A program made the position numbers and the translations under genes. DNA of 22,195 bases from Atractiella rhizophila (Eukaryota): NCBI GenBank assembly GCA_021432655.1, contig MU271355.1, positions 62,001-84,195 on the forward strand, written 5' to 3'. Shown here in pieces: positions 1,377 to 19,452 of the stretch. The stretch's first letter is position 1; each line of letters opens with the position of its first letter. The notes beneath the pieces were generated by a model that saw only the letters and a list, made by a program, of their open reading frames with translations, had not been told where the DNA came from and ran no database searches.

Positions 1377-4148
1377 TCGTTGCAGGCAGCTCCTTTGCAC
1401 GAGAATCATGATGAATATTGCTTCAGTTTACAGATGTATATACTTCAGAACTGGTTATTATAGAAAGCTCAAGAAAGATTGAGATAGGGAGCAAACTGAA
1501 AAGCAAAGCTGGTTGGATGTTTAAGGGACCTTTGTGAACTTGTCGGGAAGAGGTTGGAGAGCCGTGGGAGGACAGTTTGAGAGTGTGCGGCGAGCCTTTC
1601 GACTGGTTCAAATTGGAGTGGTGGTTGTTGAGGAAGCGTTGACGAGCCGCTCTCCCGCCTTCCACGCTTTCCAGAGATTGGAGTGTCACTGTATCTTTAC
1701 TTTCAAAACGACATTCTGATGATTCTACACCTGTATTTAATGTGCAATGTCATGCAAATGGCAATATTGAGCGTCCACACACCGTCCTCCCTCTCCTCCC
1801 CTTCCATCCTCCGCTGTCGTTCAGATTCCCTTCCGTTGACCTCGCGATTCAATCCATCCTTCTGATCGTCGCTCCTTTTTCTGTTCGCCGACACTGACCT
1901 TCCATCCTCGTTCAGCTCCTTTCCCTTCGCCTCCCGTTCAGCATTGCTGCCAATTTTCGTCCTCCACTCGTCCTCGCTCTCCTCCCCCGTTCGCCTCTCC
2001 GTTCGCAATTCGTTCGCCTTCCGCTTCTAGTACTAATCAAGTACTAATCGAGTCAATAGTATTCAAGTTGAGATCGAGTCCGATCCAGCTGGTGTCGAAT
2101 CGAACCCATACCATAAGCACTCTCTCTTCTCTCGTAAAAGCCGATAACCAAGTCGAAACATGAAAAATTGTCGAAAAAATACTTCGAAAATAACTTAACC
2201 CCAAAAGTGAGAATCCGGTGACTTCGAGTAAAAACACGTTTAAAATCGAAAATGCGTCTGTGGACTGACTGCCCGACATCGCTGCTGTAATAGCCGTAGT
2301 TTCGCACGAGTTGCATCAACAATAGTTGGGGAATACTTCGGTTTGGTGTTTCGGGGTTGTCTGTCTTCAATTCCGGGATCGGAAAATCAAAAAAAAGTCG
2401 AATTTTGATTTAGAGAAATGAAAATCTTTAGTGCCCTTTTAAAGACTTATTGCTCTGAACCCAGGCCTCTAGACACCTCTTAAGTGACCACGGAGCAAGT
2501 GAGCAATCAGCAAATTCCCTGGCGCTATAGCGTCTATCCTAGGAACACCGTATAGACCGTTCCTAGCAGCTCCTAGCAGCCCTATGGACCTTTGGGACCC
2601 TATGGCAAACTTCTAAAACCGACCTTCCACAAACTTTAACACCACCCATGACTCTAGAGTGACTCACCGCATTTCCCTATTATTGCCTAAGGGGTCAAAG
2701 CGGATTAGGGGCTCTTCGCTCGTCCAAATTTTTTTTACAAGTTCATCCAGTGTAAATCTCAATCACCTCATTCTCAAGGTCTGCCTGCATTCTGCCTGCA
2801 CAGATTTCCTCAAACTGTCTCCTCTCTCCCTTCCTACAAGCCTTCTCCCCGCCTCCAACCCTCCCAGACATGATGTCTCCAAGCTACTGGCCACGTCACC
2901 CACCTATCTCGTGCTCTGACCCGGTGTCTCAATGGCAACAAAGACAGGAGTCTCGAATCTGAAGGGAGCTGGATTATGTAGAGTGATAAGAGCGGTGATA
3001 TTACTGAGAAGGGTAAGTGGTTGATTTCTTCGGCATACCGTCATGGGTGGGATTTGTGATGCTCTCAATCAATCCTGCACTGATACTTCATTTAGCTCAC
3101 ATCTCCTGCCCATCCTCCCCATTACGGCACCTCAATTATCTGCAGTATTCTTGTTGCACAACTACCCTATCGCAGCTTACGACCTCGCCAGTTCCTCACT
3201 TGGATTCATAGTATTGTTCTGTCTCACTTCATGAGGTGAAGGACTGGTCGGCTTTCACTTGTCTATTTTGAGTTGAATGTGCACAGGTCAGGAAGGACTC
3301 CAGGAAATCAACAGATGGTCATTGAGCGAATTTAACTGTTCAAGCGGCTGTCATGGAGTTGGGTATGCTCATCATACTATTGGTGGTCCTAATGTGAGTT
3401 CTATCTACATCCCTCTTAACTCACATTTACCTCTAAGCGATGACGTTCTCTTAGGCATTAAAGTGGTCATTTGTAGGCTCGTTAGCAGTGATTGGATGTG
3501 ATAAGACAGAGCAGACAAGTGATCCGGTTCCTGCAGCACATGATAGTGTATGCTATAGTAGTTTTGCTGATTAATATAGTGGGGTTTATTGCATTATATA
3601 TATGTCACAAAGCATGGGAAGGCAGCCTACAAACGAAATGAGACAGCAAACAAGGTGACTCACCCATAGCGTGATAGCCCCATAGCGCGATAGCAGCACT
3701 CCTAGCTGTCTAGAATAGAGCCCAGGTGACAAAAACCCTATGAGCTCCTATGAGCTATCATAGCGCCTATAGCTCCATAGACGACCATCCGAAAAGTGCT
3801 GATGAGGAAGGTTTTATTAACGACACAACCAGGAACAACACAATAGGCGGCTAACCCTGAAAGCTCACAGTGTAACCACGACCTTTTCTTTTACCCCCTC
3901 AACGGAGTAGAAACCTCGATTTTGCTCACGTAGGACCTGAACCATTACTCTAACCCTTATGCTGTTTCGGCTCTTTGATTGACTACAATATGTCCACGTG
4001 ACAATAGATTCTAATGGGATAACTGCCCACAGCGCGAGCTTTCACCGTTCTCCAAAAGATCGAAGTGAGAACTCGCCTAACCCTGCAAGTAGCAGAAATA
4101 GTGCAATCTCAATCGGCGTCCTTGTAGTCGCGTGTGAAATGCCCTTTC

Positions 4149-4216
4149 CTCGTACGAAAAGTATGCTGTCTTGCACGAAAGTTTATTTCTCTTGGAAAGG
4201 TTATTTCTCTCATACG
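4149..4216 (+). repeat. Degenerate tandem array of ~21-bp CTCGTACGAAAGGTTATTTCT units (3-4 copies)
   Basis: ctcgtacgaaaagtatgctgt / cttgcacgaaagtttatttct / cttggaaaggttatttct / ctcatacg. Confidence 0.7.
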
Positions 4217-4515
4217 TCCAAGCACGCTGATCCAGTGCTGGTATCGCTCTGACTGGGAGTGCGTTCGAAGGTGTGAGTCGAGGTCTATATGAAATTCGAA
4301 CTCATTTTGTCTATTTGCCAACGCTCTGGGCACTCAGGTGTTCAAACTGCTCCGCGGTTGTGTTTGGTTTCTAGGCTGACGCGTTGAGGTTTGGCTTGCG
4401 AGGGTTCTGCGAGCCAACGAGAGCTTGTGAGCTTTGAAAGCACCCCAAACGAGGTGGTAAGCAAGAAGAAAGGCTCACCCCAAAAGCAGTTCCGAAGTCC
4501 TAACAGGAGGAGAAA

Positions 4516-5979
4516 CTAGCCGTTTCGTCCTGATGCTGTACCGACCACCACACCGCGACGAGGAGCGGCTTTGGCAACTGGTTTGCCTCTTTTCGGTTGA
4601 CTGAACTCATGTTCATGGATGTCTGAGTGTTGGCGGTTATTCGTGGCCTCAAAGCCGCGGTGGGTTATCTCGTTTACCACGACCTGCGCCTTCATTCTGA
4701 TGTAGAGTTCCCAGGAGATTGATTTCCATCTGCCCGCCATCATTATGAATTCTATACCTACCTTGAGAGCCCACAGTCTGCTTGCGCCGCCAATTCTGAA
4801 GCTATGGCCCGACACGTTGTCAATGCCTCGTGATACTTCCGTGTCCTGAGACCATATGTTCTTGCATCTATCCAGGAAGGCTCTTTTCGTGAGCGGGAGA
4901 ATGGTGTGTTCCTTTTGCGACCAGTAGGCGAACAATGGGTCTGAGTCGCTAAGCACGCAGTTGATGCGGAGGTGGTTGAGAATCGCTTCGAGCGAGAGTG
5001 TGTTCCCTATTCTCGCTTGCGGGATGCTGATGTCAACTGGTGTCCCTTTGGACACTTTGTCTTTTGGCAGGCGGAGGCGGATGTAAGGGAGACCTTCTAA
5101 GTCGAATTCTGGGAAAATTTTGTCCCGCGTCATGTGCGTTTTGGGTGAGAACGATGGTTTCGATTTCGGTAAGAGTTCGCCGAGTCTGCAGAGCCCGTAC
5201 AGCCCTGTGACGACGGCAGCCCAGACGCAAGCGTCAAAAGGTTTGAGAGGTCCAGATTCCATTCCAGGGACACCATCATCTCTTGGGAGACAGGTGCTCG
5301 CGGTCTAACAGGAACGTGAGTCTGTGACTTTGGGTTGGAGTTGCTTACTCTTTTTTGTGCGATTGACCCATGATATTGCTTATTCCTCGCAACCATTTCG
5401 TTAACACTACGGGCTTATCCTTCTCCCAGGGCCATGGGGCACCGTGCAGATCATGCCATGATCTGAGTAGTTCTCGAGGGTTTGGGTCCCAATGGTTGTG
5501 AGGGGGCGGAACGCCTGAGGGTAGATATCCGGAGGGCCCGTTGCCCAGAGGCAGAAGGATACGAGGTGTTGTTGGGATTTGATGGGAAATCTGTCCTCGA
5601 AGGGTATGCAAAACTTGTTGCAGAAATAGTTCCATTTGGCCAGTGCCGAGCCGTAAGAGTTCCAGGTGGATTCGGTGAGGGAGGTCTCGTTTGCAGCGTA
5701 CGCTATGGCTCTGAATACGGGCACGTCGAGTAGGAGATGGGAGAAGTTGTCGACGCCGCGCCATAAGCGTAGTCGATCTCCAGCTCGGCAGGGGATGAAC
5801 CTATCCTCCAACTCTTGGTTGAATGAAGCATTCTGTCTAGCGAAGGTCTCGTAGGCTGTGAGGTCACTGTCTAGTTCTTCTCGCGTTCCCCATGGTGGAG
5901 GATTAGGCCTTTTTGCTCTCCTAGGGCCACGTTCCTTGGGTTTGCGTTTAGAGATGCTTGCCTTCCGTTTATTGTTCAT
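4516..5979 (-). CDS. Tyrosine recombinase (YR), ~470 aa, with one 44-nt intron (5305-5348) and two frameshifts (~5467, ~5241)
   Basis: Catalytic motifs CRLGEL (R), LPKDK (K), SGHSFRIGGA (HxxR), GRWKS…LYIR (W/Y). N-terminal STWNSYGSALAKWNYFC…TLENY/LRSWHDLHGAPW. Start context is ACCACCATG at 5979. Confidence 0.9.
5305..5348 (-). other. Spliceosomal intron D in YR (44 nt, phase 2)
   Basis: GTAAGC…ACTCAC…CCTGTTAG; removal gives …HKK GA|A PRAPVS…, a YR-typical segment. Confidence 0.8.
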
Positions 5980-6110
5980 GGTGGTTTCAAGATGGGTTTC
6001 ACTTGCACGTGCCTATTTGCTTTCCTCGCTCTTGGAGGTCTCAGTCTACACTTGTGAATTGAATGATTGAATGTTGATGCTATGTCTGATAGATACATTT
6101 AATGTGATTG

Positions 6111-7900
6111 CTATGCTAAAGTACTAGGTACTGGAAGGGAAGAAGGATTAGAGTGGCTTATAATGAACTTGGATACTGGTTGTGGAACCGGTATGGAGAC
6201 GAAAAGTTGGTATTTGAGATGAGAAAAGGAGCCTCTTGAGGGTCGGTCCGCTGGGTTCTCTTCGGAAGGGATCCATGTGGGTAATACGGTAACATCGAGT
6301 CGTTGTGTAACTTCGCTCAATCTCTTGAGTGACTGGTTTTGTTCGTGGTTCCTTGCTCGCCACTTACGGAGGATTCCTTCGACTCCCTGGTTGTCCGTGT
6401 TGACTATGACGGCTCGATGGTCCTTCTTGAGAGTGATTCTGTTCCTGCTCAGGAGCCATTCGAGTAGGAGTACCCCTAGTTCTACGGCTAGCATTTCACC
6501 CCAGCCTATCTTCCTTTCCTCTCTGGTGGTTTCTGCCCAAGTCCAAACGCTCCAGTGTTCGTGGATCTGGACCGCTATGCCGTACGCCAGGGAGGCGTCT
6601 CCGAACCAGGTTAATGAGACTGGTTTGTCGAGTCTGGTGACTTTGCGGATGGGTGGTCCCTTCGTTAGTTGTTCGTGCCAGTAGAGAAGATCTTTCCGGA
6701 CTCCTTTGGGGAGATGTAGTGTACCGCGCTCGAGGAGCCAGGGATTGTCTTCCCCTAAGGCGTGCGGGAACGAGGCGATGAAGTTTATGAGATTCGTGAG
6801 ATATGGCTTGCACTGGAACATGGCGAAGGCGACGTGTTGGAGGTAGCCGTGGAGGTGGGTGGCTTCCGCTAAGGTCGCTCTAAAGTTCGGTTGGAGCCAC
6901 GTTTGGACCGTGAGGAGTGTTCTGATGAATTTTTCTCTCGGGAGTGAAATGGTGTGTTCGCGGAAGTCCCAAACGAAGCCGATGAACTTGACGAGATGAG
7001 AGAACTTCGCACATTTCTTGAGGTGCCATGGTATCCTTAGGCCGTCGAGGTCGCTGAAGAAGTCTTCCTCTGTTCCCCAGACCTTGAGTGATTTCGACCA
7101 GATTACTTCGTGGTCGTCTACCCACTTCCAGATCTTCTTCCACCTCTTTTTCCTGGCTATGGCTACCCAAGCGTCGTCTACACTACCGAATACGCCTGGT
7201 AGGGATGAGGTTCCGAACGATCCTACCACGTTGATCCAGAAGTTGCCGTTGTAGTCCTGTATGACGAAGGCCCGCCTTGACTCTTCATCGAGAGGGATGG
7301 TTTTGAAGGCTTCCGCTATGTCGATAGTCATTGCTTCGGCGTCTTTCGGGAGCTGTGCAAAGTCGAGGAGCGCCTGTGAGAAGGCAGTCCATTCTGTGGG
7401 AAAGTCGTCAGAGTCGATGAGGTCGTTTACCGAGGGCCAGTCTTCTCCAGACTCGTCTAGACCCCCTTTTGAGGCGTTCTCTATGAGCCTAAATTCGTCC
7501 ATGGTACCGGCCTTTGGGACGGCATTGAGCGGGTTCGACCTCCAGCCCTTGCCCCCAAATATTTCGGAGACTTCCTCCCGGTTGTAGGGTCCAAAGTTCC
7601 TCTTCTTGGCGTTCTCCTCCTGGATGTAGCCGTGGATGAAACGCTTCCTGGCGTCGTCGACTGGGGTGTTGGGTGGGGTGAATGTAGTTTGGGTAGTGTC
7701 GCAATGCCGACGTTGAAGCCATTTCGGATGCCGTGCACGACGTGTTGGAATTCGTTTAGGAGATTATACTTCTTTAGTTGCTTGCGGAAATTAGATGCGC
7801 TGTAGGGGGTAATGATCGTTCGTGCTGGGTCGTTGGGGTTCGTGATGTTGATTCTCGGTTGAGGGACTTCGATCCTCTCATCTGGAGGATCGGGGAGCAT
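6111..7900 (-). CDS. pol: Reverse transcriptase-RNase H (pol) of the YR retrotransposon, ~596 aa, with one 1-nt-deletion frameshift near 7695
   Basis: RT motifs IDIAEAFKTIP, SFGTSSLPGVF, KWVDD, FIGFVWD. RNase H motifs FGDAS, GEMLAV, NTDNQGV, ENPADRPSRG. The N-terminus (ITPYS…GFNVGI) is in the 7481..8050 frame and shifts to TQTTFTPPN…EENAKKRNFGPY…AVPKAGTMDEFRLI, which is continuous with ORF 6111..7502. The ATG at 7900 overlaps the gag 3' end. Confidence 0.9.
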
Positions 7901-10900
7901 GCTGACGAGCTCTGCAGTCCTTGCTGCCGTGCAGGGAGCATACGTGCTTGTCTCTAGGGCAGGCTGTTCCGTCTGCCAGCAGGTTCTTGCATCCGTCTTC
8001 TCGCAGGTTAAAGATTGCGCAAATCTGTTCACCGCTTGAAGCGACGACAAGTGCCTTGGGTCTCTGATGCCTTCCTGAGAGTCTGGAGGGGAGCATTTAA
8101 GTGAGCGCCGTGCAGTTGAAGCTGTGACCTACCGCTTGGAGCCTCCGACGACTGTTCCTTCCTCTTCGCACCTGTTCCAACCGTGGTTGGATGGGGCTCT
8201 GCCACACCTGGCGCAGAAGTCGTGTTTGGAGGGTCGACCTCCTTCTCTAGGTTTCGATGGTAGGTCGTTGTCTGGTCGCTTACTGGCGTTTCTGAGTTTG
8301 GAGGAATCTGATGGTCCCGCGTGGTACGAGCCTGGGTGGAGGTGGTTTCCGGGATTACTCCCCCTTCTCCCTGCCTGCTTCATAAGGTCCTCGAACACTC
8401 TAAGCCTAGCATCCAAGGAGTCTCCTTGCCATAATCGAAACTGCTCGGTCACCTGGGTGTAGATAGTGTCGAGGTATTCCCAGGCGCCAAAGTCGGACGT
8501 CGCCTCGTGCCTGGTTTCGTGGTCCCTTCGGGCCTTCTCCTGGGTTGCCATGATGAGATTCCAGTTATTGTAGTCGGAGGCTCCGTTTAGAGCGTACTTT
8601 CTCTTGCACCAATCCTTCATGGATTGGAGTGCTCCGGCGATGTTCATCAGGAATGTTCTGTCTTCCCATTCTTGCACGACTTTGATGTACCAGTCCATGC
8701 CTTTCTCAAAGTCGGGATATGACGGCCTGTCGTCTCTCGCTCTGGCCCGTTCGATGATCTTGCGAGTTTTGTCGTCGGACAAGATGAGTCGGTCTCCTGA
8801 GTCGAACTTGATTTCTTTCGACTCGTCCAGCCCGTACTCTGCAGAGAGTTGTTTCCACGCCGTTGGTAGGTGGGCAGGGATGTAGGCGTGCGGATTCTCG
8901 TGTATTTTCTTTTTGAGCTCTGGAACGTCGAAATCGACTTGGATGGTGGGGACGGAATTCTTATTGATGACGGAGTACTTCCAGTCTTTCTGAGATTTCG
9001 CCTCCTTGATTAGTCTCTTCTGCCGAGAACGCTCTGACTCTGTTGATGAGTCCGAGTTAGAGGAGGGATCTGATGCATCTGGTCCGCGGCTGGTGTGCCG
9101 TATGTTCTTTCTCCTCTTCTTCCGTCGTCTTTTTCTCCCTTCCGCTTCATCCCCGCTAGAGTGGGAATCAGGAGCGCGATGCTTTCTCCTTGCTGCGGGC
9201 TTTCCCTTCAACGCCGTTGCTTCTGGCTGGTCTATAATTTTTCTCGTTCTTCCGCAGTCGCCCACAGGGTGTCCTTGCTGCTCCTGTGGCTGGGCAGTCG
9301 CGCTGGCTGAAGGGGGGTCATGTGGCTGCGTCTGTCGTCCCTTCGCCGGATGGGGTGTTTCTGGACCTATGCCGGGGGGGTTGGCTTGTGCGAAGTTCTG
9401 GTAGGCGTGGAGAAATTGGGCCCGGGTTGGGGGGGTATTGCCGGGATTTGCGAAAGGTGGGATGGTGCCCGCTGCTTGCACAAAGCTTGCGGGGAATCCT
9501 CTGATGGGGGCATGCGGCGACAGCAAGGGCTGTAGGGGCTGCGTGGGTAATGCTGTGTCTCCCCACCCACCCCCAGGCAGTTGGTGTCCCGGGTTTTGGT
9601 GATTTGGTGGGTTGACGGGGGTGGGGTTCTGGTGGCTTCCCTGGTCAGCGTTGGCTCCTGGTACCTGGGGTCTGAGCCGATTTACTGCGGTCCCTTCTCG
9701 GGGGAGCCAGTTAGACTTAATGGTGGTTGGGAGGGGGCCGCCCCAGTTATGTGGGGTTCTAGTTGATGGTGGTGGAGCGCTGTCGTGGAACCTTCCGCCA
9801 GGGAGAGGATTCGCCGTCGCTTGTGCAGCAGAGTTTGGGGGGAAGCTGAGGAATTCTCCCCCAGTGTGGGGGTTTGCGATTGGGTATACGGCACTGCAAC
9901 CCTCGCGCCTTAGTACGGGCACTCCCACCACGTGGAGCTGCTCACGATGTTGTAAGGATGTTGAGAGATCCCTCCCTAATATAAGGGTTCCCGACAGGTT
10001 GTACGGTACTACAACCGTCACACCTTAGTAGAGGCACTCCCACCACGTGGAGCTGCTTACTGGACAAAGGCGTCGTTGCGAAGACCCCCCCCAGTGTGGA
10101 GGCCCGCCGACCCGCCCTGCGGTCTCGCCACGGAGAATGGCCTGTATCTGAGTCCGGCATTGGAGAGGTGATGGGAGGGTAGGGTTGGCTCCTCTTCCCT
10201 CCCCTTCCCCTTCTGAATCCTCCGGTAGTTCTTGTCGAATGAGATGCGCAGGACTTGGATCTGTTGCGCAGATAAGTTGCGCTCCTCGATGCGACGGTTG
10301 AATTCTTCCGGTTCGGTTGCTTCGAGGACGTATTGGATTGCTTCTACTGCATTCTGCTGTTCCTCTTCCAGTTCCTCCTCCCTCTCTTCTTCCCGTCTTG
10401 CATCTTCCATCGCTTCCCTCTTTACTTCCAGGCCCAGTTCTTCTGGTGTATGCCAGGTGTAGAATACTGGCATACCCAATTCCGTCCATCCTACTTGAGC
10501 CGTTTCCGCCGCTGGTGGTCTAAAGTTAACTCTTTCGTGGGGTCTCTGGCGCCAACGGGAGCTGCTGTAGAACAGGCAGTCGGTGGTGTCCTGCCAGGCC
10601 ATGACGTTGGCGAGAAGGACCCATTCACCAGCGAATTTGTTGTAGGCATAGATTCGAGTGAATTCACGGAGGGGGAGGCCTGATCTGAGGACGTAGCACC
10701 ACATGTCAATGGCTCGCGATATGAGTTGGGTGCGGAACTTCGAGGTGCGTGGCGTGCCGGTTCTGCGAGCCACAAAGGTTAGGATATGTTCTGCTTGCTC
10801 CTCGATGTGGAGTGGGGAATAAACGTTGTCCCCAAACTTGGAAGCGTCCGAAGGGTCAGAGAGAACGTCTACAAACTTGTAAGGCAGAGATGGAAGTACG

Positions 10901-11223
10901 GCGTCTGCGAAGTCTTTCTGATTCAGACTGGAGAAAGGTTTCCAAAGTTTGTCGAAGGTATCAAAGAAATGCGTCGTTTTGGCCTCGTTCACGTCCACGC
11001 CGTCCCTTTCTGCCACCTCTATGAGACCCTTGTGGCAAGGGTCCATGAGAGACCCGGGTTCAGCAGAATACGGAACGTTGGCCAAGACTGAAAGTTCGTA
11101 GAGAAAAAGAGAGTGTGGATTGGAAGTCTCCGGAACGAAGAAAGAGAGACCCAAATTCATCTCTAGCAAGGTGTTGCGACTCATCTGACCACCTTCTGCT
11201 GCCATTTCCTTCAAGAAGGTCAT
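7878..11223 (-). CDS. gag: ORF1 / Gag-like protein of the YR retrotransposon, spliced: join(11223..10061, 10008..9946, 9893..8133, 8082..7878), ~1063 aa; start may lie further upstream
   Basis: Four ORF-track pieces (10057..11289, part of 9942..10160, 8129..10021, 7878..8096) join in frame on removing three GT-AG introns (52, 52, 50 nt). Product has an unknown N-terminal region, E/R coiled coil, KGKGRE, Pro/Gln-rich repeats, basic RKRRRKKRRK, CARC-x6-H-x4-C knuckle, and a C-terminal ICAIFN…GC…C…HVCSLHG Zn finger. Confidence 0.8.
8083..8132 (-). other. Spliceosomal intron C of ORF1 (50 nt, phase 2)
   Basis: GTAGGT…GCTCAC…CCCCTCCAG; removal gives CG|A and joins the CCHC knuckle to the ATG-poor C-terminal Zn-finger exon. 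Confidence 0.85.
9894..9945 (-). other. Spliceosomal intron B of ORF1 (52 nt, phase 2), twin of intron A
   Basis: GTGAGC…TACTAAG…GTTGCAG; 45/52 identical to intron A; removal gives TC|T in frame. Confidence 0.85.
10009..10060 (-). other. Spliceosomal intron A of ORF1 (52 nt, phase 2)
   Basis: GTAAGC…TACTAAG…GTTGTAG; removal gives CA|T and restores the frame. Confidence 0.85.
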
Positions 11224-11326
11224 GTGTTGGCTTTGGTGGGTGTGGCTGCAGTTAGAGAACGTGTTCTCGGGTTGGGGAGTTGGTGACAAAGAGCGGATGC
11301 GGTCGAAGAGAGTTGAAAGGAGAGCT

Positions 11327-11393
11327 CTGAGAGAGCTTGGGAGAGCGGTTGGTTAATGAGTGTTGGTGATCACGGCGCGACTCAGTGACTTAC
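11327..11393 (-). other. Candidate 5' intron of ORF1 (67 nt; alternative acceptor at 11336)
   Basis: Perfect GTAAGT donor, ATTAAC branch-like site, pyrimidine tract and CAG. The downstream frame is open into ORF1 (ALLSTLFDRIRSLSP), but the ATG at 11403 is out of phase by one base. Confidence 0.55.
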
Positions 11394-11442
11394 TCAAGTG
11401 CATTGGACTAGGACCAGAATTTTGGTTTCTGGGCTTTTAAAT

Positions 11443-11508
11443 GTTTATTTCTCTCGTACGAAAGGTTATTTCCCTCGTACGAAAGGTTATTTCTCGTACG
11501 AAGGGTTT
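11443..11508 (+). repeat. Tandem array of ~21-bp CTCGTACGAAAGGTTATTT units (3 copies)
   Basis: ctcgtacgaaaggttatttcc / ctcgtacgaaaggttattt / ctcgtacgaagggttt. Confidence 0.9.
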
Positions 11509-14289
11509 CCTGTAAAAGTGTTACCGCCATATCCCACGAAACCTATCACGCTTTCACTTCGCTGCGTTTTTCATGCAGTCCCAGCCCACCTCTCTCGCGT
11601 CCTCTCATCTGTCCCTGGTCTCCTTCACTCTGGCCGGTCCTGTCAGGATTTTGGCGCGTTGAGCGTCATTCATTGCCACCTGTTCTGTGGCAGTTTTTCT
11701 TGAATGTTCTGGACTTCCATGCTTACCAACGTTTGCCAAAGGTATAAAAGCACCAGATTCTTTATTGTAATACCATGAACTTGTAATTTCATCAGGTCCC
11801 TCTCCTGTTTTAGCACTCCCCCAGCCCCAGCCCCGCCCTCTTTGCATTCCTCTTTCGTCTTAGCTATCCCCCACTGTCCTCTTTCCTCATGCACCTCCCC
11901 ACACGCGACGGCCGATGTAGTCGGTAGCGCTGGTGTGAGCAAGTGATGAGTGGACGAGTATAATTAGTGAGAAGATGGGAGGGGAAGTGAGGTGCATTTG
12001 TGAACAGATGGTACGTAATGGTAGATGAAGAGTGCAGAGATGGAAAGGGAGAGCGAAGCACGAGACGATGACAGACAACACTGACTGAGAAGGAAGATGC
12101 CAGCATTGCTGATCTGTTGACCAGAGAAAGTGAGCCTGAGGACGGCATAGCACAACAAAGGAGGCACGCGATTCAGTGGAGGCAAGAGCGAGTGAGGAAG
12201 GGCGAAAGAGTGGCCAGGTCTGGATCCTACTATGATTAACGGGGGCTAAAACTTTGAAGCAACGAGAGGTGCGAGAGAGGAGGAGGTGACCTCCCCTCCT
12301 CCCCTCCTCCTCCTCCTCTCCCTCTTTTTGCATTTGTGCTTAATGACAACGGGAACAGGTTCCTCGCCCCCTCACCAAGGACGCTCCTCATCCCAACGCC
12401 TCTTGCAGCCGCGTCCGGCCTCAGCACTGCTCACTGCTCGACCCTCCCAGCGTCCCCACTTACCTTCGCTGCCGGGGCCACCGAGCGAGAGAGCAGCGCG
12501 AGGGAAGCGTTGGAGGTAAAAGGAGACACGCAGGAGCGCCATCCTGCATCAAACTCAATACCTCCTTGCGACATATCCCACTTTCCGCTTTACGGTAACC
12601 CTCGCCTTGCTTTCTCTCGCTCCAGCATCCCTCTCCTCACCTCCGAGCTGCTCTCGCCATCCGTCCTCCTCTGCTCCTCCAGCAACTTCTGTGTACCCCG
12701 AAATGAGCTGCAAGTAAAAGCTGGAATTCGGATCGCGAAAGCAGAGGATGGAGGTGACTGAGCGGTACGGGATTGAGAATGGACGTCGGGGGGGGGGGGG
12801 GGCACGGTGTGCTTTCTCCACCGTTACCCCCTTGTTTCACCTCCCTCTCCAACATGCCCAAGCCCATTTCCGCCGTCCCTCGCTTGTGGCCACCTTGCTT
12901 CATCTTAGACATTGGAAATTAACCACGAAGCGTAGTTGGGACTTTTGATGGCGAAAGAGCTAGATTGCGGCGCAGATAAGATGAAAAAGGAGGACAGAAA
13001 GACGTCGCGGCCACCCATTCGCCCATCCCCTAGTCGTGCCGCCGTCTTTCGCCAACGCGCCTATTCTCTCGCTCTCCACCATTGGATAGGCGACGCATTC
13101 CCACTCCACCATCGCTCATCCAGCTTCTCGATCATCTTGGTAATCTAAAATCAACCCAGAGAGCGACGGGTATATCAAATGACGAAAAATGTGGACAGAG
13201 CGAACGAGTTCGGCGGGTGATCGCAGAAGGACGCGAGAATGACCGTCCAGCGTCTCCCGCCAACTCCTTTCGCCTCACTTACCGAGGGCATCCCTCTCCG
13301 CCAAGGTCCACCCTTGATTTCGCATTCCCCCAACCCCTCCGCCTTTTTTCACGTTCTGGCATTCCGTTCTGGTGGCAGTGTATTCCCTTTCTCTCCCTCT
13401 TTCCCTGCCACAAGTGTCCTAACTGACATGCGCACAAGGTCCCTTGCTCCGCGGCTCCATTTTGCTACACTTACTCCACCTCCTCTTACACTCCACCGTC
13501 TCTCACCCCTCCACCAAGCCCGTAACCGCTCGGAAGTCCAACGTGGACTGAACGTTAGAAGTCGGATAGCGAAGGGGGAGGCGGGAGGTGTCAAGGGGCC
13601 GATACTCAGCATAAGATGTCAGAGGGGAGTCTCGCACTTTCTTCACGCCTCTGTTCGCACTCCATCGCCATCTGTCACCCTGCTGTGCCGCTCCAGTGTT
13701 CCATACCGCCCTTCTATTCTCACTTCCACCTCATCCACCTCATCCTGCATCTTCCGTCCCACTCCGGCTCGCAGTCCATGGATCACCTAGAACGGACACT
13801 TGCTTCGTGACGGGATGTCAACAATGAAATGGTTGATGGACAAAGAGGAGGGCTATGTGGGCAGTGTCGGATCACACAAGTGGTCATCTAGGTCGGCAGC
13901 TCTCGTGCTTCTAAGCCTCTGCCATCCATCCCTCTTGTCTCCCGCTACCAACTCAAGTGTCATCGATGTTCTCGCAAGTAGCCTCCTCCGTCTCCTCCGT
14001 CACTCTGATCGCTAACCGCCTATCTAGCCTTCCCTCTCGCAATCAGATCATTGTGGGACGAAGCATCAATATCACAGCGTACTGCTCTAGCTCTCATTTG
14101 AATTGCAGTGTAATTTAGGTACTAGTATTGCAAAGGATTTCAGTTCATTTACATATTTTAGGATTCCCGGTGGCATTATCTGGTAGTTAAGTGCTAGTCA
14201 ACTCCCGCGAACGGTTATGCGATCTTCATCTTCACGATGGTGATATCTGATCAGCCGGATCATTGCGCGGAGAACGTCGAGATGGTTCA

Positions 14290-15168
14290 AGTTGGACAAT
14301 GCGTTGATGCGCTGCAGGCATGACCTGACCTTTCCCCTCACTTGTCTCGTTTAACATGAATTCGTGGGCTTCAGTCCCGCGCATCTTCTCAGGGAAATGA
14401 GGGCGGAGGAAACATTGATTTCACGGAAGGATGATCAGGGGACAGTCTCAATCGTACGGGTTCATCTCATCACCCCAGTAACATTACGACAAGGCATTCC
14501 GATCCACCTCTCCATTCTTCCCTCTTTCCTTTCTCGTTTACCACCACACACTCCGGATCACATTTATCTTGCCTCTTGAATTCTGAAGCGAGGGTAATGG
14601 GCCATCGAAATCGACTTATTTCTCTCTGGAAGGTCTCGAAAATGCAGTCGGAGGCGACGACACAATGAACCTTTCCATTTCCATGACTTTGGGGGAGGAA
14701 AGTATTATGGTAGCCTTTGGGGATTCCAAACATCATGCATCCGTGGATTTGGACGACCTGGACGTGAAGCCCTTCACTTGTTCGTGTTCCAGATAATCGC
14801 TCTGAGGTCATCTTCTACCCCATCGCCCAATACTCCAAGAAGGAACAATGTTTCATTCTTATCAGTGAACGGGGATCAACCATCCCATCCACCGGTCTAG
14901 GGACCACCATCCAACTCGAGATCTAGATATTAGTTCGTGCCCTATCGCAAGGCTACACAACGATATCCTCTCTCTCATCGTCGAGGTCCTATCATTCCGT
15001 AAATACGAAAACATCATCGAAGGTCGTAATGGATACCTCGTTTCCTTCCAGCGACTTTCTGCCGTCTGTCAGCTCTGGAAGGCTGTTTCAGTCCCATGTT
15101 TGGATGAAGATATTTCTATGAAGGAGAGGCATGCTCGCTTGAAAGTGTACCTAATGTTGGACGTTTCT
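14290..15168 (+). pseudogene. Decayed, 3'-truncated F-box protein gene, paralogue of the gene at 17017-19452
   Basis: Shared blocks across several frames: HLSILPSFLSRL vs YLSILPSFLSRL; YFSLEGLENAV vs CFSLECLENAI; CPIARLHNDILSLI…VCQLWKAVSVPCL vs CSISRLPIELLSRI…VCQLWKSVGAPYL. It has stops and frameshifts and ends at the copia junction. Confidence 0.8.
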
Positions 15169-15171
15169 CCT

Positions 15172-16636
15172 CTGCAGATCCTCCGAACGATTTGACGGGC
15201 GCAGGAACCCCATACATCGGTGTGGATCAGTTCGAGCTTTTCCTTTGCGCGTTCGGCGGGGCCGGAGGGGAATGGGAGTTTGCGTTGTTGACCAAGTAGG
15301 CATCCGGTGCACGGTGAGTGGTGATCCTCATCTCCCATCTCTAGTCCCCTGACCATTCCCTTTTCTTGCAACAGCTTGAGGCTCCCGCTCCCGATGTGAC
15401 CTAAACGACAGTGCCAGACATGCGAAGAGGCGGGCTTTGCGGCGCTCGTGAGTTTTGAGCTTGCGCTTTCGTTCATGATTACTGAGGCATCCAATCTTCG
15501 CAGTCCGCTTTCAGCAACGATTTCAGCGACCACAGTACCATCACCCTTCACCACCTTCCCTTGCCTGTCTGCGGAGAATACAACATCGAAACCGCGCGTG
15601 TTCACCTTGTCGGTGGAGAGGAGGGCGCAGTCGATTTCGGGGTCATAGAGAGTGTCAGTTATCTCAATTTCTCTTTCTACTCCTTTGACCTTTGTTAACA
15701 CTTTGACAGTGCCGATGCCAATTGCTTGTGTGACGATGCCGTGGGACAAGCGGATGCAACGTGAGTGGGGCTTGAGTGAGAAGCATTGATGTGGTCCGTG
15801 GCAGCGGAATTGACATAGATCCCCTCACGGTGTATCCTTTCCCCCATAACCGTGTGGAAGGCTTCTGATATTCTAGCTTCTCCAGGTTTCTCTCCTGCTT
15901 CTCTCTTCTTCTCGTGGCAGTCCCATTCCCAATGTCCTTCAATGGCACAATAATGGCATTTCCCATGCTTCTTCTCGCTTTTCAGTTTTCCTCCGCTACT
16001 CCCTCCTTTTGATTTGGTTATGTTGAGGATGTGAAGTCGGAGGTGGCAACGGTGTTGAAGGAGGAGACGACCTTGATCCAGGACTGTGGGAGTGAGATAA
16101 GTAGGAGCATAGGGATATCATCAGGTCAGTTTGGTCTCCCATCGCTTTCAACTCCTGTCCCATGGTTCTGATTCGGTTTACATGCTCCCGCATAGATTCT
16201 CCTTCGACATAACGCTGTGTAAAGCTTCTGGCGGAGCAGTACACACGCTTGTCGGTCCTGGGTCTAGTAGAGCTCCTTAAGCTTGTCCCAGACCTCTTTC
16301 AGTTTCTCAACTCCGATGTCCCGAATGTCAGTAAGTATATGGTCTTTGCAGGCTTCGATGATGATGGAGTAGGCTAGGTATGCTCGCTTCATCCAATCCC
16401 TTTGTGACGCTTCGATTGTGTTGACCCTCATGACGTTCTTTGGTTTCGCTGCCTCCGCTTCCTCGAGACTCCCTGGCTTGGGATCCGTTCCTGCAACGAT
16501 CCCCCAGCAGTTCCTTCCGAGGAGCTTAGCCTGGACTCTAAAGGACTCTAAAGCACCAGGTACGGTAATTCCCCCGTCCTTCGAGTTTCGCGATAGTCGA
16601 TGCAGCAATGAGCGATGTGTCATTACCTTCAGACAT
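15172..16636 (-). pseudogene. copia gag-pol polyprotein remnant with multiple frameshifts
   Basis: ATG at 16636 (MSEGNDTSLIAASTIAKLEG). Pieces lie in ORFs 16264..16647, 15996..16244 and 15069..15749. A 10-nt duplication at 16534-16553 shifts the frame. Confidence 0.85.
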
Positions 16637-16699
16637 CCTGGGCTCATGTCGATGCAGCAATGAGTGATGTGTCATTACCTTCAGACATCCTGGGCTCAT
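16596..16699. repeat. 52-bp tandem duplication covering the copia PBS remnant and gag start
   Basis: 16596-16647 and 16648-16699 are identical except for one C/T. Confidence 0.95.
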
Positions 16700-17016: not shown

Positions 17017-18825
17017 TTATTCTCCCTCTACCACCCTGCTCCTGGCCCTCTCAAACTTATCTATTATGCTCCTGACCCTCTTATCTATTGTGCTCCTGGG
17101 CCTCAATTGCCACTTATCTATTGTGCTCCTGGCAATACCAATCTCTTCCTCAAGCCACTCTCCGAAGAACAAACAAAGTTCAAGACTCTTACACGTCCTT
17201 TGGATGTCAACCACATCACCCTTCTTCTCTTCTCTCCTCCTCCCAAAGAACCAGTCGATAAAATCTATAAATCCTGACCAATCCACCACACAGAACTCAA
17301 TCCGTATTGAGTGGATTGCCTTTGCATTTTTGAGACTATCAAAGAATTGGGGGTAAATCAGATTTGAAGTTTCCTCGCCACCATCAAGATCGAGGTGGGT
17401 GAGGTGTATGAGGTGCGATAAGTCGAGTGGAGTAGGTAGGATGGAGGTTTTTCCGTCGGCAGAGAAAGGCGCAAGCTTGACTGTGAGATTTTGTAGAAGG
17501 GCGGGTAGAGGGGCGCTTGAAAAGGAGGGAGGAAGTGGACACATATTGCTGAGCCTGAGCTTTTGCAGGGACTGTGGGAGGGAGAGTGATGGGAGAGGCG
17601 GGTATTTGTCAAGATCAAGGGACATGAAGCCGTGTCGTAATTGAAGACCCGCCGATGCCGAAGTGTAAGAGTCCAAGTCCTCCACGTCGTATGCTGTGAG
17701 GTGTTTGATCCTGTCACCCATCCTCCGCATAAAGTTTTCGACCTCCTCCTTCATCCACTTTCTCCAACCGCCAGATCTAAATTTTATGTCGTCCACCCAT
17801 TTCAAGCCCTCAATTGCCTTCAATATATCCTTTGCCTCCTCCTCATTCCAATTTGCATCCATGAAAACAAGACTAACTCTCGGTGAACCAGCGATGACCC
17901 TTTTCACCATCTCAACAGCACAATTTTGATAACTCTCTAAGCTAAGCCTCGTCCACATACGTCCACCGGCACGGTACACGTTGAGGAGAGTATTTTTCTT
18001 CTTGATGTACCGAGGTTCCTCTAAATAAGGGGCTCCCACTGACTTCCATAGCTGGCAGACCTTACGCAGCTTCTTGACCGTCTCGAAACTTAGGGTTGTT
18101 TTGGGCGTATATCCTTCTCTGCTGAAATAGAATATTCGAGAGAGTAGCTCGATGGGTAGTCGTGAGATAGAGCAAGTAGTATCACCTGGTGATCGGGAGA
18201 GTGAGAATTGGATGATGAAGGCCGCCCTCGCACTGCATGGAATTGACGATGGTTCGAAATCACTCATGGGTATAAAGCGCGCAATTCTTGAAGAGTATAC
18301 GGCGACAGGGGCATAGATGCCGTTAGAGCGATGTTCTGGCAGGAGATGAAACATGAGAGTGAATACGGCGGTACCACGTCGACCAAGAAGAATACGAAAT
18401 GTGTGAGTGAATGGTTCTGCCAGTGATGGCAGATGATCCGAATCGACAGGTACAGGCTTAGCCAGAACAAGTGTCCCATATTTTTTCTTTCTGATGCTTA
18501 TAACTATGCATAGATTCGCGACACCGTTTTCGATGGCATTTTCGAGACATTCGAGGGAGAAACAGGACATCGCCGATAACGCCTGCGAAAAGTGAATTAT
18601 GGAGAGCTCATGTGGAACAACAGCAACCCGAAGCATGCGAACCGATGGACATAGGCGGGATAGGAAAGAGGGAAGAATGGAAAGATAGAGCAGACTGTTG
18701 TTCCCGAAGTCTGATTGGCTGAAATATTCCGAGTAGTTGAAGAGGTTGATAAACACTTTTGACGCTGGGCCTTGGTGTATTGGTTGTTCTGGCATCGCCT
18801 GGGACAACTGTGGCCCTGAGTTCAT
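17017..18825 (-). CDS. F-box domain / LRR-like protein (602 aa); probably the 3' part of a longer ORF starting up to 19452
   Basis: Long open frame with F-box ISRLPIELLSRIF…LRKVCQLWKSV followed by LRR-like units (LPQSLQKLRLSNM, LPALLQNLTVKL, LSHLIHLTHLDLDG). Confidence 0.8.
   Translation of the reverse strand: MNSGPQLSQAMPEQPIHQGPASKVFINLFNYSEYFSQSDFGNNSLLYLSILPSFLSRLCPSVRMLRVAVVPHELSIIHFSQALSAMSCFSLECLENAIENGVANLCIVISIRKKKYGTLVLAKPVPVDSDHLPSLAEPFTHTFRILLGRRGTAVFTLMFHLLPEHRSNGIYAPVAVYSSRIARFIPMSDFEPSSIPCSARAAFIIQFSLSRSPGDTTCSISRLPIELLSRIFYFSREGYTPKTTLSFETVKKLRKVCQLWKSVGAPYLEEPRYIKKKNTLLNVYRAGGRMWTRLSLESYQNCAVEMVKRVIAGSPRVSLVFMDANWNEEEAKDILKAIEGLKWVDDIKFRSGGWRKWMKEEVENFMRRMGDRIKHLTAYDVEDLDSYTSASAGLQLRHGFMSLDLDKYPPLPSLSLPQSLQKLRLSNMCPLPPSFSSAPLPALLQNLTVKLAPFSADGKTSILPTPLDLSHLIHLTHLDLDGGEETSNLIYPQFFDSLKNAKAIHSIRIEFCVVDWSGFIDFIDWFFGRRREEKKGDVVDIQRTCKSLELCLFFGEWLEEEIGIARSTIDKWQLRPRSTIDKRVRSIIDKFERARSRVVEGE
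17056..17132. repeat. Three ~20-bp repeats encoding RS(T/I)IDK at the F-box protein C-terminus
   Basis: cttatctatt(a/g)tgctcctg at 17056, 17080 and 17113. Confidence 0.85.
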
Positions 18826-19452
18826 TGGATCAGACCGAATTTGGGAACAAACGTCGAATCATGTACCGTTAAGTTCATGTTCGAAAATTGTACTACCTTG
18901 ACTGCTGGTTCTCAACGAAAACTCCAAATCTACTAAGTGATGAATGGCTCGATCAGATGGTCGTCTGTCGAAGTATGCTGTGTAGGAGTCTTCCATTCGA
19001 GAGCTGGTGGGTAGGTGCATACTGCTCGGAGCGTTCGAATAGTCGTCTGCAAGGTATGAGAAGGGAGGACGCGCAGTCGCGAACAAAGTCGAAAGTTCGG
19101 ATGCGTTGGTGGGAGTTTGAATGCTGGTTGAGTGCGAAATGAAGTTTTGATGGCGATCTTGCATAAACAAGGCTGTGGCACTCGCGCCTGGCCCTTGATC
19201 TGCAAGTCGGATTGATGGTCGCTGCCCAATCGTTTCCTGAGAAAAGATAACAGACCACAGCCCAAGACTTATGTTAGATGCGATGAGAAGAAGAAAAGAG
19301 AGATCAGGCCACCATTCTATCCTCCCCCACCGAAACTTGTGCCATTTTGATGGATTCCACTTGATGTCTGCAAATCGACTCTGGAGAAGAAATAACTGAT
19401 GAGATCGGTTGGACATGGATTCGCTGAGGGCATTGTCCGGGACGTTGGACAT
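18826..19452 (-). pseudogene. Probable N-terminal part of the F-box gene, cut off by one in-frame TGA (18859-18861)
   Basis: ORF 18859..19452 is in the same frame as 17017..18825, with 33 open nt between them. The DLEFSL…FEHELNG segment resembles DLTFPL…V*HEFVG in the + strand paralogue. Confidence 0.5.

Follow-up and report, generated by a model that had tools for sequence, protein, structure and literature searches.

The classic sign that a sequence has been copied through RNA is the loss of introns from its sense strand, a principle that underlies every retrotransposition reporter, that of DIRS-1 included. Here we describe a retrotransposon with a tyrosine recombinase (YR) whose coding strand is interrupted by four segments that behave as spliceosomal introns. 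It lies on the minus strand of a 22,195-nt stretch of the genome of Atractiella rhizophila, a basidiomycete of the Pucciniomycotina (GenBank assembly GCA_021432655.1, contig MU271355.1, positions 62,001 to 84,195 of the forward strand). This whole stretch is referred to below as the window, and all coordinates are those of the window.

Elements of the Ngaro type have split direct repeats in the order A1 - internal - B1 A2 B2, DIRS-1 carries a methyltransferase-like domain, and the YR genes of Cryptons contain introns. A methyltransferase-like domain after RNase H separates DIRS1-like and PAT-like elements from Ngaro (also summarised in PMC3783388). Ngaro elements are present in both Pucciniomycotina and Agaricomycotina (PMC3783388). 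For DIRS-1, spliced tagged RNA is converted into cDNA and so, depending on position, is tagged RNA that was not spliced, and its proteins act in trans; loss of a sense-spliced marker intron from new copies provided the proof of its RNA route (PMC7192593). Penelope-like elements keep introns, and a reporter is no longer expressed once the Penelope intron has been deleted (PMC2377424). In Cryptococcus, both mRNA accumulation and expression depend on introns (PMC5851062), and poorly spliced transposon RNAs feed RNA interference (RNAi) (PMC3744415). A first-pass annotation of the window had mentioned introns in a few fungal DIRS-like elements; no such report was found in the literature searched. 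More generally, we found no description of introns in Ngaro or DIRS elements in the full-text literature searched (an earlier mention is possible), and a term search of the text of Muszewska et al. (2013; PMC3783388) returned neither "intron" nor "splic".

In the window, the minus strand from about 4217 to 11490 constitutes one element with the Ngaro-type gene order, i.e., ORF1 followed by reverse transcriptase (RT)/RNase H and then the YR. Six long open reading frame (ORF) pieces on this strand resolve to ORF1 (four pieces), a pre-RT segment, the RT/RNase H ORF and the YR (coordinates in Table 1). When introns 1 to 3 are removed, frames -2, -3, -1 and -3 join in that order to give an ORF1 of 1063 amino acids, running from an ATG at 11223 to a stop at 7878. 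The first-pass annotation had predicted four GT-AG introns, each exactly restoring the frame, so that four pieces would merge into an ORF1 of about 1063 amino acids and the YR would be reconnected. The positions of all four introns and the make-up of ORF1 held up. The YR of this copy did not behave as predicted: removal of the 44 nt of intron 4 leads from frame -1 into frame -3, and not to the ORF at 4516-5304 in frame -2, and there are two more frame breaks in the YR. That the 4516-5304 ORF starts at the TAG of intron 4 is a coincidence.

Six public sequencing runs containing parts of the element were found, none of which is on record as RNA. Contigs from four of them, i.e., X1 (taken to be DNA), X3 (kind not on record), and X4 and X5 (guessed to be RNA), were aligned to the window at 85% likeness. 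Intron 3 was skipped exactly in contigs of both X3 and X4, which join 8082 to 8133 and thus skip 50 nt with ends CT..AC; the joint was supported by one contig in X3 (depth 196.9, shorter side 64) and one in X4 (depth 3.5, shorter side 28). Intron 2 was missing from an X3 contig in which 9893 was joined to 9947 with one letter between them, which represents removal of intron 2 together with a substitution at the last exon base. X3 record 7 ceased to match at 5304, precisely where intron 4 has its 3' border, and carried a further 66 letters. By contrast, the DNA run X1 yielded no intron-exact joint among the 15 joints listed, and two of its contigs retained introns: record 4 (7938-8427, about 91% identical, with 44 differences and 0 gaps) kept intron 3, and record 6 (9623-10035, about 98% identical, with 9 differences and 0 gaps) kept intron 2. 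The first-pass annotation had asked whether young dispersed copies retain introns; retention of introns 2 and 3 is seen in these two diverged contigs.

Two predicted gene models, which are not transcripts, use the same borders. P0026, the model of the window's own locus, splices intron 2 exactly, and in P0028, a model 87% identical from another scaffold, exons 1 and 2 are fused precisely at the borders of intron 1. P0026 (8452-10160 on the minus strand, 533 amino acids, annotated as a "hypothetical protein") is otherwise a mosaic, with the wrong starting frame, read-through of intron 1 and a doubtful last intron.

Introns 3 and 4 could be compared with intronless relatives. Intron 3 splits a module that is conserved in those relatives, consisting of a CX2C..H..C knuckle, 32 residues, and then C..[FW]N...C...C...H.CSLCG..H; when the spliced tail of ORF1 was aligned with 11 relatives, there was zero gap at the intron-3 junction. 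Intron 4 splits the YR between ..GQSHKK and EPRAPVSQEMMVSLEWNLDLSN, and again the spliced reading was gap-free against 11 relatives. The YR was matched in 38 related metagenome loci; 7 of these end before the intron-4 site or are fragments, and none of the remaining 31 has an intron there, all of them crossing the site in one frame. Because the spliced junctions are free of gaps against these intronless relatives, introns 3 and 4 are pure insertions. Introns 1 and 2 lie in a lineage-specific part of ORF1, where the relatives offer no comparison. Taken together, these observations support the view that the four segments behave as spliceosomal introns, and full-length ORF1 and YR must then require their splicing.

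Introns 1 and 2 are related to one another, being identical at 45/52 positions, whereas the exons downstream of them are identical at only 39/63. Intron 2 arose with a tandem duplication of 115 nt that comprised intron 1 plus its exon. A 25-nt core that includes CACGTG is identical in the two introns and absent elsewhere in the window; an introner-like repeat was considered and rejected, the core occurring within the window at those two sites only.

The ORF1 product, at about 1063 amino acids, compares with 260-315 amino acids in relatives, the difference including an N-terminal extension of about 650 amino acids. For the N-terminal part, a HMMER search over 1.84 billion representatives matched only fragments of the family itself (P0027-P0029), there was no Pfam family, and the ESM Atlas gave no usable match for exon 1. 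Pfam returned nothing for ORF1 as a whole, and a protein search with its C-terminal part among shorter proteins found nothing.

The YR spans 5979-4516 on the minus strand, after the RT/RNase H ORF, and all of its catalytic residues (R, HxxR, W and Y) are kept. Pfam found nothing for the YR pieces, and in tblastn P0024 and P0025, whose source names are DNA breaking-rejoining enzyme and Tyr recombinase domain protein, matched 5793-4660. The two frame breaks other than intron 4 are plain deletions in this copy. Behind 5466, other copies have 10 nt more (one contig in X1; one contig in X3, depth 66.7/66.7), and restoring them gives the reading ..ENYISSLRSWH.., which matches the relatives. Behind 5239, other copies have one additional nucleotide, a G (four contigs in X1; two contigs in X3, depth 92.3/92.3), and restoring it gives ..LDLSNPFDACVWA.., as in the relatives. 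The copy in the window has at least these two deletions in its YR, of 10 nt and of 1 nt. Because other copies are without them, this copy is dead; in intact copies, intron 4 would be the sole interruption of the YR. A further intron accounting for the break near 5470 was rejected: there is no room for one, and the homologues are continuous there.

Assignment of the element to RT/RNase H plus YR retroelements, made in the first-pass annotation, was correct, as judged from RT(-RNase H) fold matches and the YR motifs. The RT contains TIDIAEAF and WVDD, and the RNase H contains GDAS, E, DN and D; in an 18-sequence alignment the catalytic D, the VDD and the acidic residues of RNase H (DEDD-type) fall in invariant columns. 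When an AlphaFold2 model built from the same 18-sequence alignment was submitted to Foldseek, the top 50 matches were all RT(-RNase H) structures, among them those of CaMV, MMLV, XMRV, HIV-1, foamy virus, HERV-K and Ty3. Pfam matches were weak and below threshold (RVT_1, E=0.071; DNA_pol_viral_C, the hepadnaviral RNase H, E=0.0036), and a PDB profile search with the RT/RNase H alignment gave 0 matches at E <= 0.01. The modeled fold supports the identification of the 550-amino-acid ORF as RT/RNase H; the nearest relatives found for it are 29-37% identical. It stops about 35 amino acids past the last RNase H motif with no further domain, and no Pfam domains were found in the ORFs downstream of it.

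The ends of the element are in direct orientation. Arrays of a unit of about 21 nt occur at 11439-11502 and at 4145-4216, the latter lying outside the boundary at 4217 defined by X1, i.e., beyond the shared part, so that it may belong either to the end of the element or to the target. That boundary was placed where contigs of X1 diverge into unlike sequence (four contigs before 4217 and four behind 11490). Within 3000-13500 there were 0 inverted pairs of at least 20 nt, i.e., none of the inverted repeats of DIRS1-like elements, and a direct-repeat search and a blastn comparison of both ends did not find a split direct repeat of the B type. Because of the gene order, the lack of a domain after RNase H and the direct ends, the family is a YR retrotransposon of the Ngaro type by layout. 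Two other classes were considered and rejected. A Crypton, i.e., a DNA transposon with a YR only and no RT, is ruled out by the conserved RT/RNase H ORF at 6111-7763, and for a Penelope-like element there was no GIY-YIG match to Pfam in any of the six ORFs, a YR being present instead.

Table 1. Positions of the features of the element within the window
Feature	Position	Strand	Basis
Whole element copy, about 7.27 kb, ends approximate	4217..11490	-	X1 contig divergence and ORF layout
5' terminal array, three units of about 21 nt (CGTACGAGAGAAATAACCTTT-like)	11439..11502	-	direct-repeat families D2, D3; blastn of end against end
ORF1 exon 1, frame -2, from first ATG; N-terminal extension	10061..11223	-	ORF list and splicing
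Intron 1, 52 nt, phase 2, GTAAG..TACTAAG..TAG	10009..10060	-	GT..AG, frame restoration, gene model P0028
ORF1 exon 2, 63 nt = 21 codons	9946..10008	-	
Intron 2, 52 nt, paralogue of intron 1, GTGAG..TACTAAG..CAG	9894..9945	-	P0026, X3 contig
Tandem duplication, 115-nt unit (intron + 63-nt exon), 9841-9945 against 9956-10060, 75% identical	9841..10060	-	direct-repeat family D1
ORF1 exon 3, frame -1: Pro/Gln-rich region, basic stretch, relative-like part, first CX2C..H..C knuckle	8133..9893	-	
Intron 3, 50 nt, GTAGG..CTCAC..CAG	8083..8132	-	X3 and X4 joints, gap-free relatives
ORF1 exon 4, frame -3: second Cys/His motif (C..FN...GC....C...H.CSL.G) and stop	7878..8082	-	
Pre-RT segment, frame -1, ending GIRNGFNVGI	7700..7855	-	homologues P0001, P0002, P0003, P0005, P0010 align and continue in frame -3
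RT/RNase H ORF, frame -3, 550 amino acids	6111..7763	-	motifs, AlphaFold2 model, Foldseek
YR first part, frame -2, from ATG	5467..5979	-	
Site of 10-nt deletion in this copy	5466..5467	-	X1 and X3 contigs
YR segment between the 10-nt deletion site and intron 4; frame -1 here	5349..5466	-	
Intron 4, 44 nt, phase 2, GTAAG..CTCAC..TAG	5305..5348	-	collinearity with relatives
YR segment between intron 4 and the 1-nt deletion site; frame -3 here	5240..5304	-	
Site of 1-nt deletion in this copy	5239..5240	-	X1 and X3 contigs
YR catalytic part, frame -2: R in CRLGEL, GHSFRIGGAS, GRWKSISWELYIR, stop	4516..5239	-	
Array of the terminal unit of about 21 nt, located at the 3' end or immediately outside it; likeness to the 5' array 73-84%	4145..4216	-	direct-repeat search and blastn

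The family is multi-copy and dispersed. In X1, 580 contigs matched the element (167 at >=99% likeness, 193 at 95-99%, 152 at 90-95% and 68 below 90%), and gene models of the family occur on five scaffolds, of 309835, 129072, 84195, 26694 and 26401 nt. This rules out a single-copy domesticated locus, which the first-pass annotation had named as a finding that would overturn its proposal. In a single contig of X1 (depth 316.8, side 47), position 4435 is followed directly by 11295, so that 6859 nt are missing and only the two ends are kept; it is an internally deleted derivative, as expected if proteins of the family can act in trans. Relatives were represented by 65 metagenome loci, which are compact (about 4.3-5.3 kb), with an ORF1 of 260-315 amino acids and no introns. 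In L010, L013, L025 and L037 (contigs of 4.3-5.3 kb) the YR match is split across both contig ends, i.e., these are circularly permuted, reflecting either tandem copies or circular DNA forms.

How could introns survive in a family with an RT? The best explanation, to which we assign a probability of roughly 0.6, is that the window holds a dead copy of a dispersed Ngaro-type family in which spliced mRNA is translated and unspliced RNA is copied in trans. The spliced mRNA would serve translation, and the template for reverse transcription would be a transcript that had escaped splicing, so that new copies would keep the introns. Because the proteins need spliced RNA while genomic copies keep introns, the proteins made from spliced mRNA would have to act in trans on unspliced RNA, a split that may be likened to that between retroviral genomic RNA and spliced mRNA. 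The introns themselves might be kept if transcripts without introns accumulate to low levels in basidiomycetes and if transposon RNA that is spliced inefficiently attracts RNAi.

A number of points weigh against this explanation. The copies may have arisen otherwise than through RNA, and retention of introns was directly seen only in the window and the two X1 contigs. Beyond the joints listed, X1 may also contain copies that are free of introns. The intron-less contigs come from runs that are not recorded as RNA, and these contigs could be DNA copies of spliced RNA. Splice-like motifs on the sense strand were no more frequent than expected by chance, with 20 GT[AG][AG]G..YAG candidates of 40-70 nt against 15.3 +/- 5.3 in 300 first-order Markov simulations, and because motifs alone do not exceed chance, the case for introns rests on their position at frame breaks, on collinearity with relatives and on the exact-skip contigs. 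We detected no special fold in the introns that might mark unspliced RNA (z = -0.10, -0.41, +0.35 and +0.24 against shuffles). The suggested benefit of introns for expression is inferred by analogy with Cryptococcus and Penelope. Finally, the window has a change of frame between the pre-RT segment (frame -1) and the RT (frame -3).

Of the alternatives, the one that survives best, although we consider it unlikely, is that the family moves, or also moves, as DNA: a circle excised by the YR would reinsert, as proposed for Cryptons, and the introns would never meet splicing. For Cryptons, introns have been cited in support of their being DNA elements. The catalytic residues of the YR are kept, the DNA contigs inspected still carry introns, and some related elements (L010, L013, L025 and L037) are circularly permuted, all of which would fit such a route. 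However, circular permutation in a metagenome also results from tandem copies or repeat ends, and cut-and-paste alone does not reach the copy number seen in X1. The active-site motifs of the RT/RNase H are conserved here and invariant across the 18 aligned members of the family, and an RT-RNase H fold is hard to explain if the RT is unused.

Less probable again is the proposal that the contigs without introns in X3 and X4 represent genomic copies of spliced RNA, introns being regularly lost while a few intron-bearing masters or segmental duplicates persist. X3 is of a kind not on record and that of X4 is guessed, and DIRS-1 does lose a sense intron on retrotransposition (PMC7192593). The X3 contigs that skip introns also carry much of the depth of their bins (196.9 against 176.5 and 206.5; 110.8 against 130.6 and 159.5), a comparison that amounts to a weak hint, the depth being one figure per contig. 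On the other hand, none of the 15 X1 joints listed, from 580 contigs, matches an intron, and two diverged contigs keep theirs. The sharing of 31-mers with the window, 0.47 for X3 and 0.54 for X1, fits the same genome read as RNA better, and segmental duplication alone is at odds with copies on five scaffolds with unlike flanks.

We regard as very improbable the idea that an antisense transcript, in which the GT-AG introns would be unrecognisable, serves as the template. Antisense DIRS-1 transcripts are known, but new copies in the DIRS-1 assay lose a sense-spliced marker intron, which shows a sense template in that relative (PMC7192593). That the four segments are chance GT..AG stretches bridging the frame breaks of a decayed copy is largely refuted: the copy does have frame breaks caused by plain indels, and splice-like candidates are as common in simulated sequence, but contigs of other runs show exact skips of 50 and 52 nt, gene models of two different copies use identical borders, no gap opens at junctions 3 and 4 in alignments with intronless relatives, the spliced repeat unit of 63 nt is exactly 21 codons, and intron 3 is retained free of indels in a copy that is about 91% identical.

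The preferred explanation, i.e., translation of spliced mRNA and copying of unspliced RNA in trans, has a stronger form, which we put forward tentatively and would not yet favor over its negation. This is that the family represents the first lineage of YR retrotransposons with an intron-dependent life cycle, in which introns were gained within conserved ORF1 and YR coding sequence of an element copied through RNA, one was duplicated and all came under selection, since spliced transcripts in basidiomycetes would be expressed and would evade RNAi coupled to splicing. There would be a split between spliced mRNA, from which the proteins are made, and unspliced genomic RNA, which they copy in trans. 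If true, a retrovirus-like division of labor would have evolved independently in the DIRS order. More broadly, the family offers a natural system for asking how a retroelement chooses an unspliced RNA template, or whether YR retroelements also move as DNA. It provides a clean case of intron gain within sequence that has intron-less relatives, and a means of testing whether transposons of basidiomycetes have to resemble spliced host genes in order to be expressed and to avoid RNAi coupled to splicing. There is also a practical implication, in that transposon annotation based on ORFs misses or fragments such elements; in the public annotation this one is broken up into several "hypothetical protein" models.

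At the border between the pre-RT segment and the RT, relatives too shift frame, and the break in the window may reflect either mutation or design. An extra intron accounting for this break, near 7690, was rejected, since there is no room for one and the homologues are continuous there. At 37 of the 49 related loci that cover the site (corresponding to 7765-7600 of the window, minus strand), GLR[DE]GF[DN]VGI is read in frame n, while the RT (..YFENHSSS..) lies some 34 nt away in frame n+1 (examples being L004:1930-2060, L006:1920-2050 and L012:1850-1960); the other 12 are in a single frame. In L012 (1850-1960), a TGA stands exactly at the site of the offset. To judge from the sequences, this recurrent +1 offset resembles a programmed frameshift that has been conserved, whereas the change in the window is -1/+2, unlike the +1 of the relatives. 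Four relatives (L004:1493-4660, L006:1539-4649, L011:1442-4678 and L014:1810-5043) have a single ORF of 1037-1079 amino acids from the pre-RT segment to the end of the YR. These ORFs traverse the whole RT/RNase H ORF in another frame, a stop-free overlap of about 1.5 kb that is beyond chance and suggests an overprinted reading frame in this clade; the family in the window is without this overlap.

Upstream of the ATG of ORF1, a candidate 5'-leader intron of 67 nt (11327-11393, minus strand; GTAAGT..CTCAG with a branch-like motif) was noted, for which there was no supporting joint among the joints listed. The window is rich in transposons. ORFs at 15069-16671 (minus strand) contain a CX2CX4HX4C knuckle and a gag/pre-integrase-like region, and were read by eye as a fragment of a Copia-type long terminal repeat retrotransposon; at 17017-18858 (minus strand) there is an open frame of 613 amino acids.

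How, then, does the element compare with the systems already described? It has in common with Cryptons that these too are fungal mobile elements encoding a YR, with short direct repeats at their ends (PMC3212892); Cryptons, which are YR DNA transposons of fungi and animals, are without an RT/RNase H, whereas this element has a conserved one. With Penelope-like elements it shares the property of being a retroelement that keeps functional introns through transposition, those of Penelope-like elements being correctly spliced (PMC2377424). Penelope-like elements differ in having an RT of their own type fused to a GIY-YIG endonuclease and no YR. Moreover, the Penelope intron is in the 5' leader/promoter region, whereas the introns described here split coding sequence and are needed for the reading frames.

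With DIRS-1 of Dictyostelium discoideum it shares the combination of RT/RNase H and YR. The RNA route of DIRS-1 has been proven experimentally, with both unspliced and spliced RNA being reverse transcribed and proteins acting in trans (PMC7192593). The intron followed in that work was an engineered marker, and in the account cited here the genes of DIRS-1 itself are not described as intron-bearing (PMC7192593). DIRS-1 also has inverted terminal repeats and an internal complementary region, whereas no inverted repeats were found in this element. The closest match is to the fungal Ngaro elements (Muszewska et al., 2013; PMC3783388), with which it has in common an ORF1 with Cys/His knuckles followed by RT/RNase H and YR, the lack of a methyltransferase-like domain after RNase H, and terminal repeats that are direct rather than inverted; its host, in the Pucciniomycotina, also falls within the range given for them. 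Where it departs from them is in its four obligatory spliceosomal introns and in an ORF1 of about 1063 amino acids with an orphan N-terminus. The element is an intron-bearing variant of a Ngaro-type YR retrotransposon, and the variant is new.

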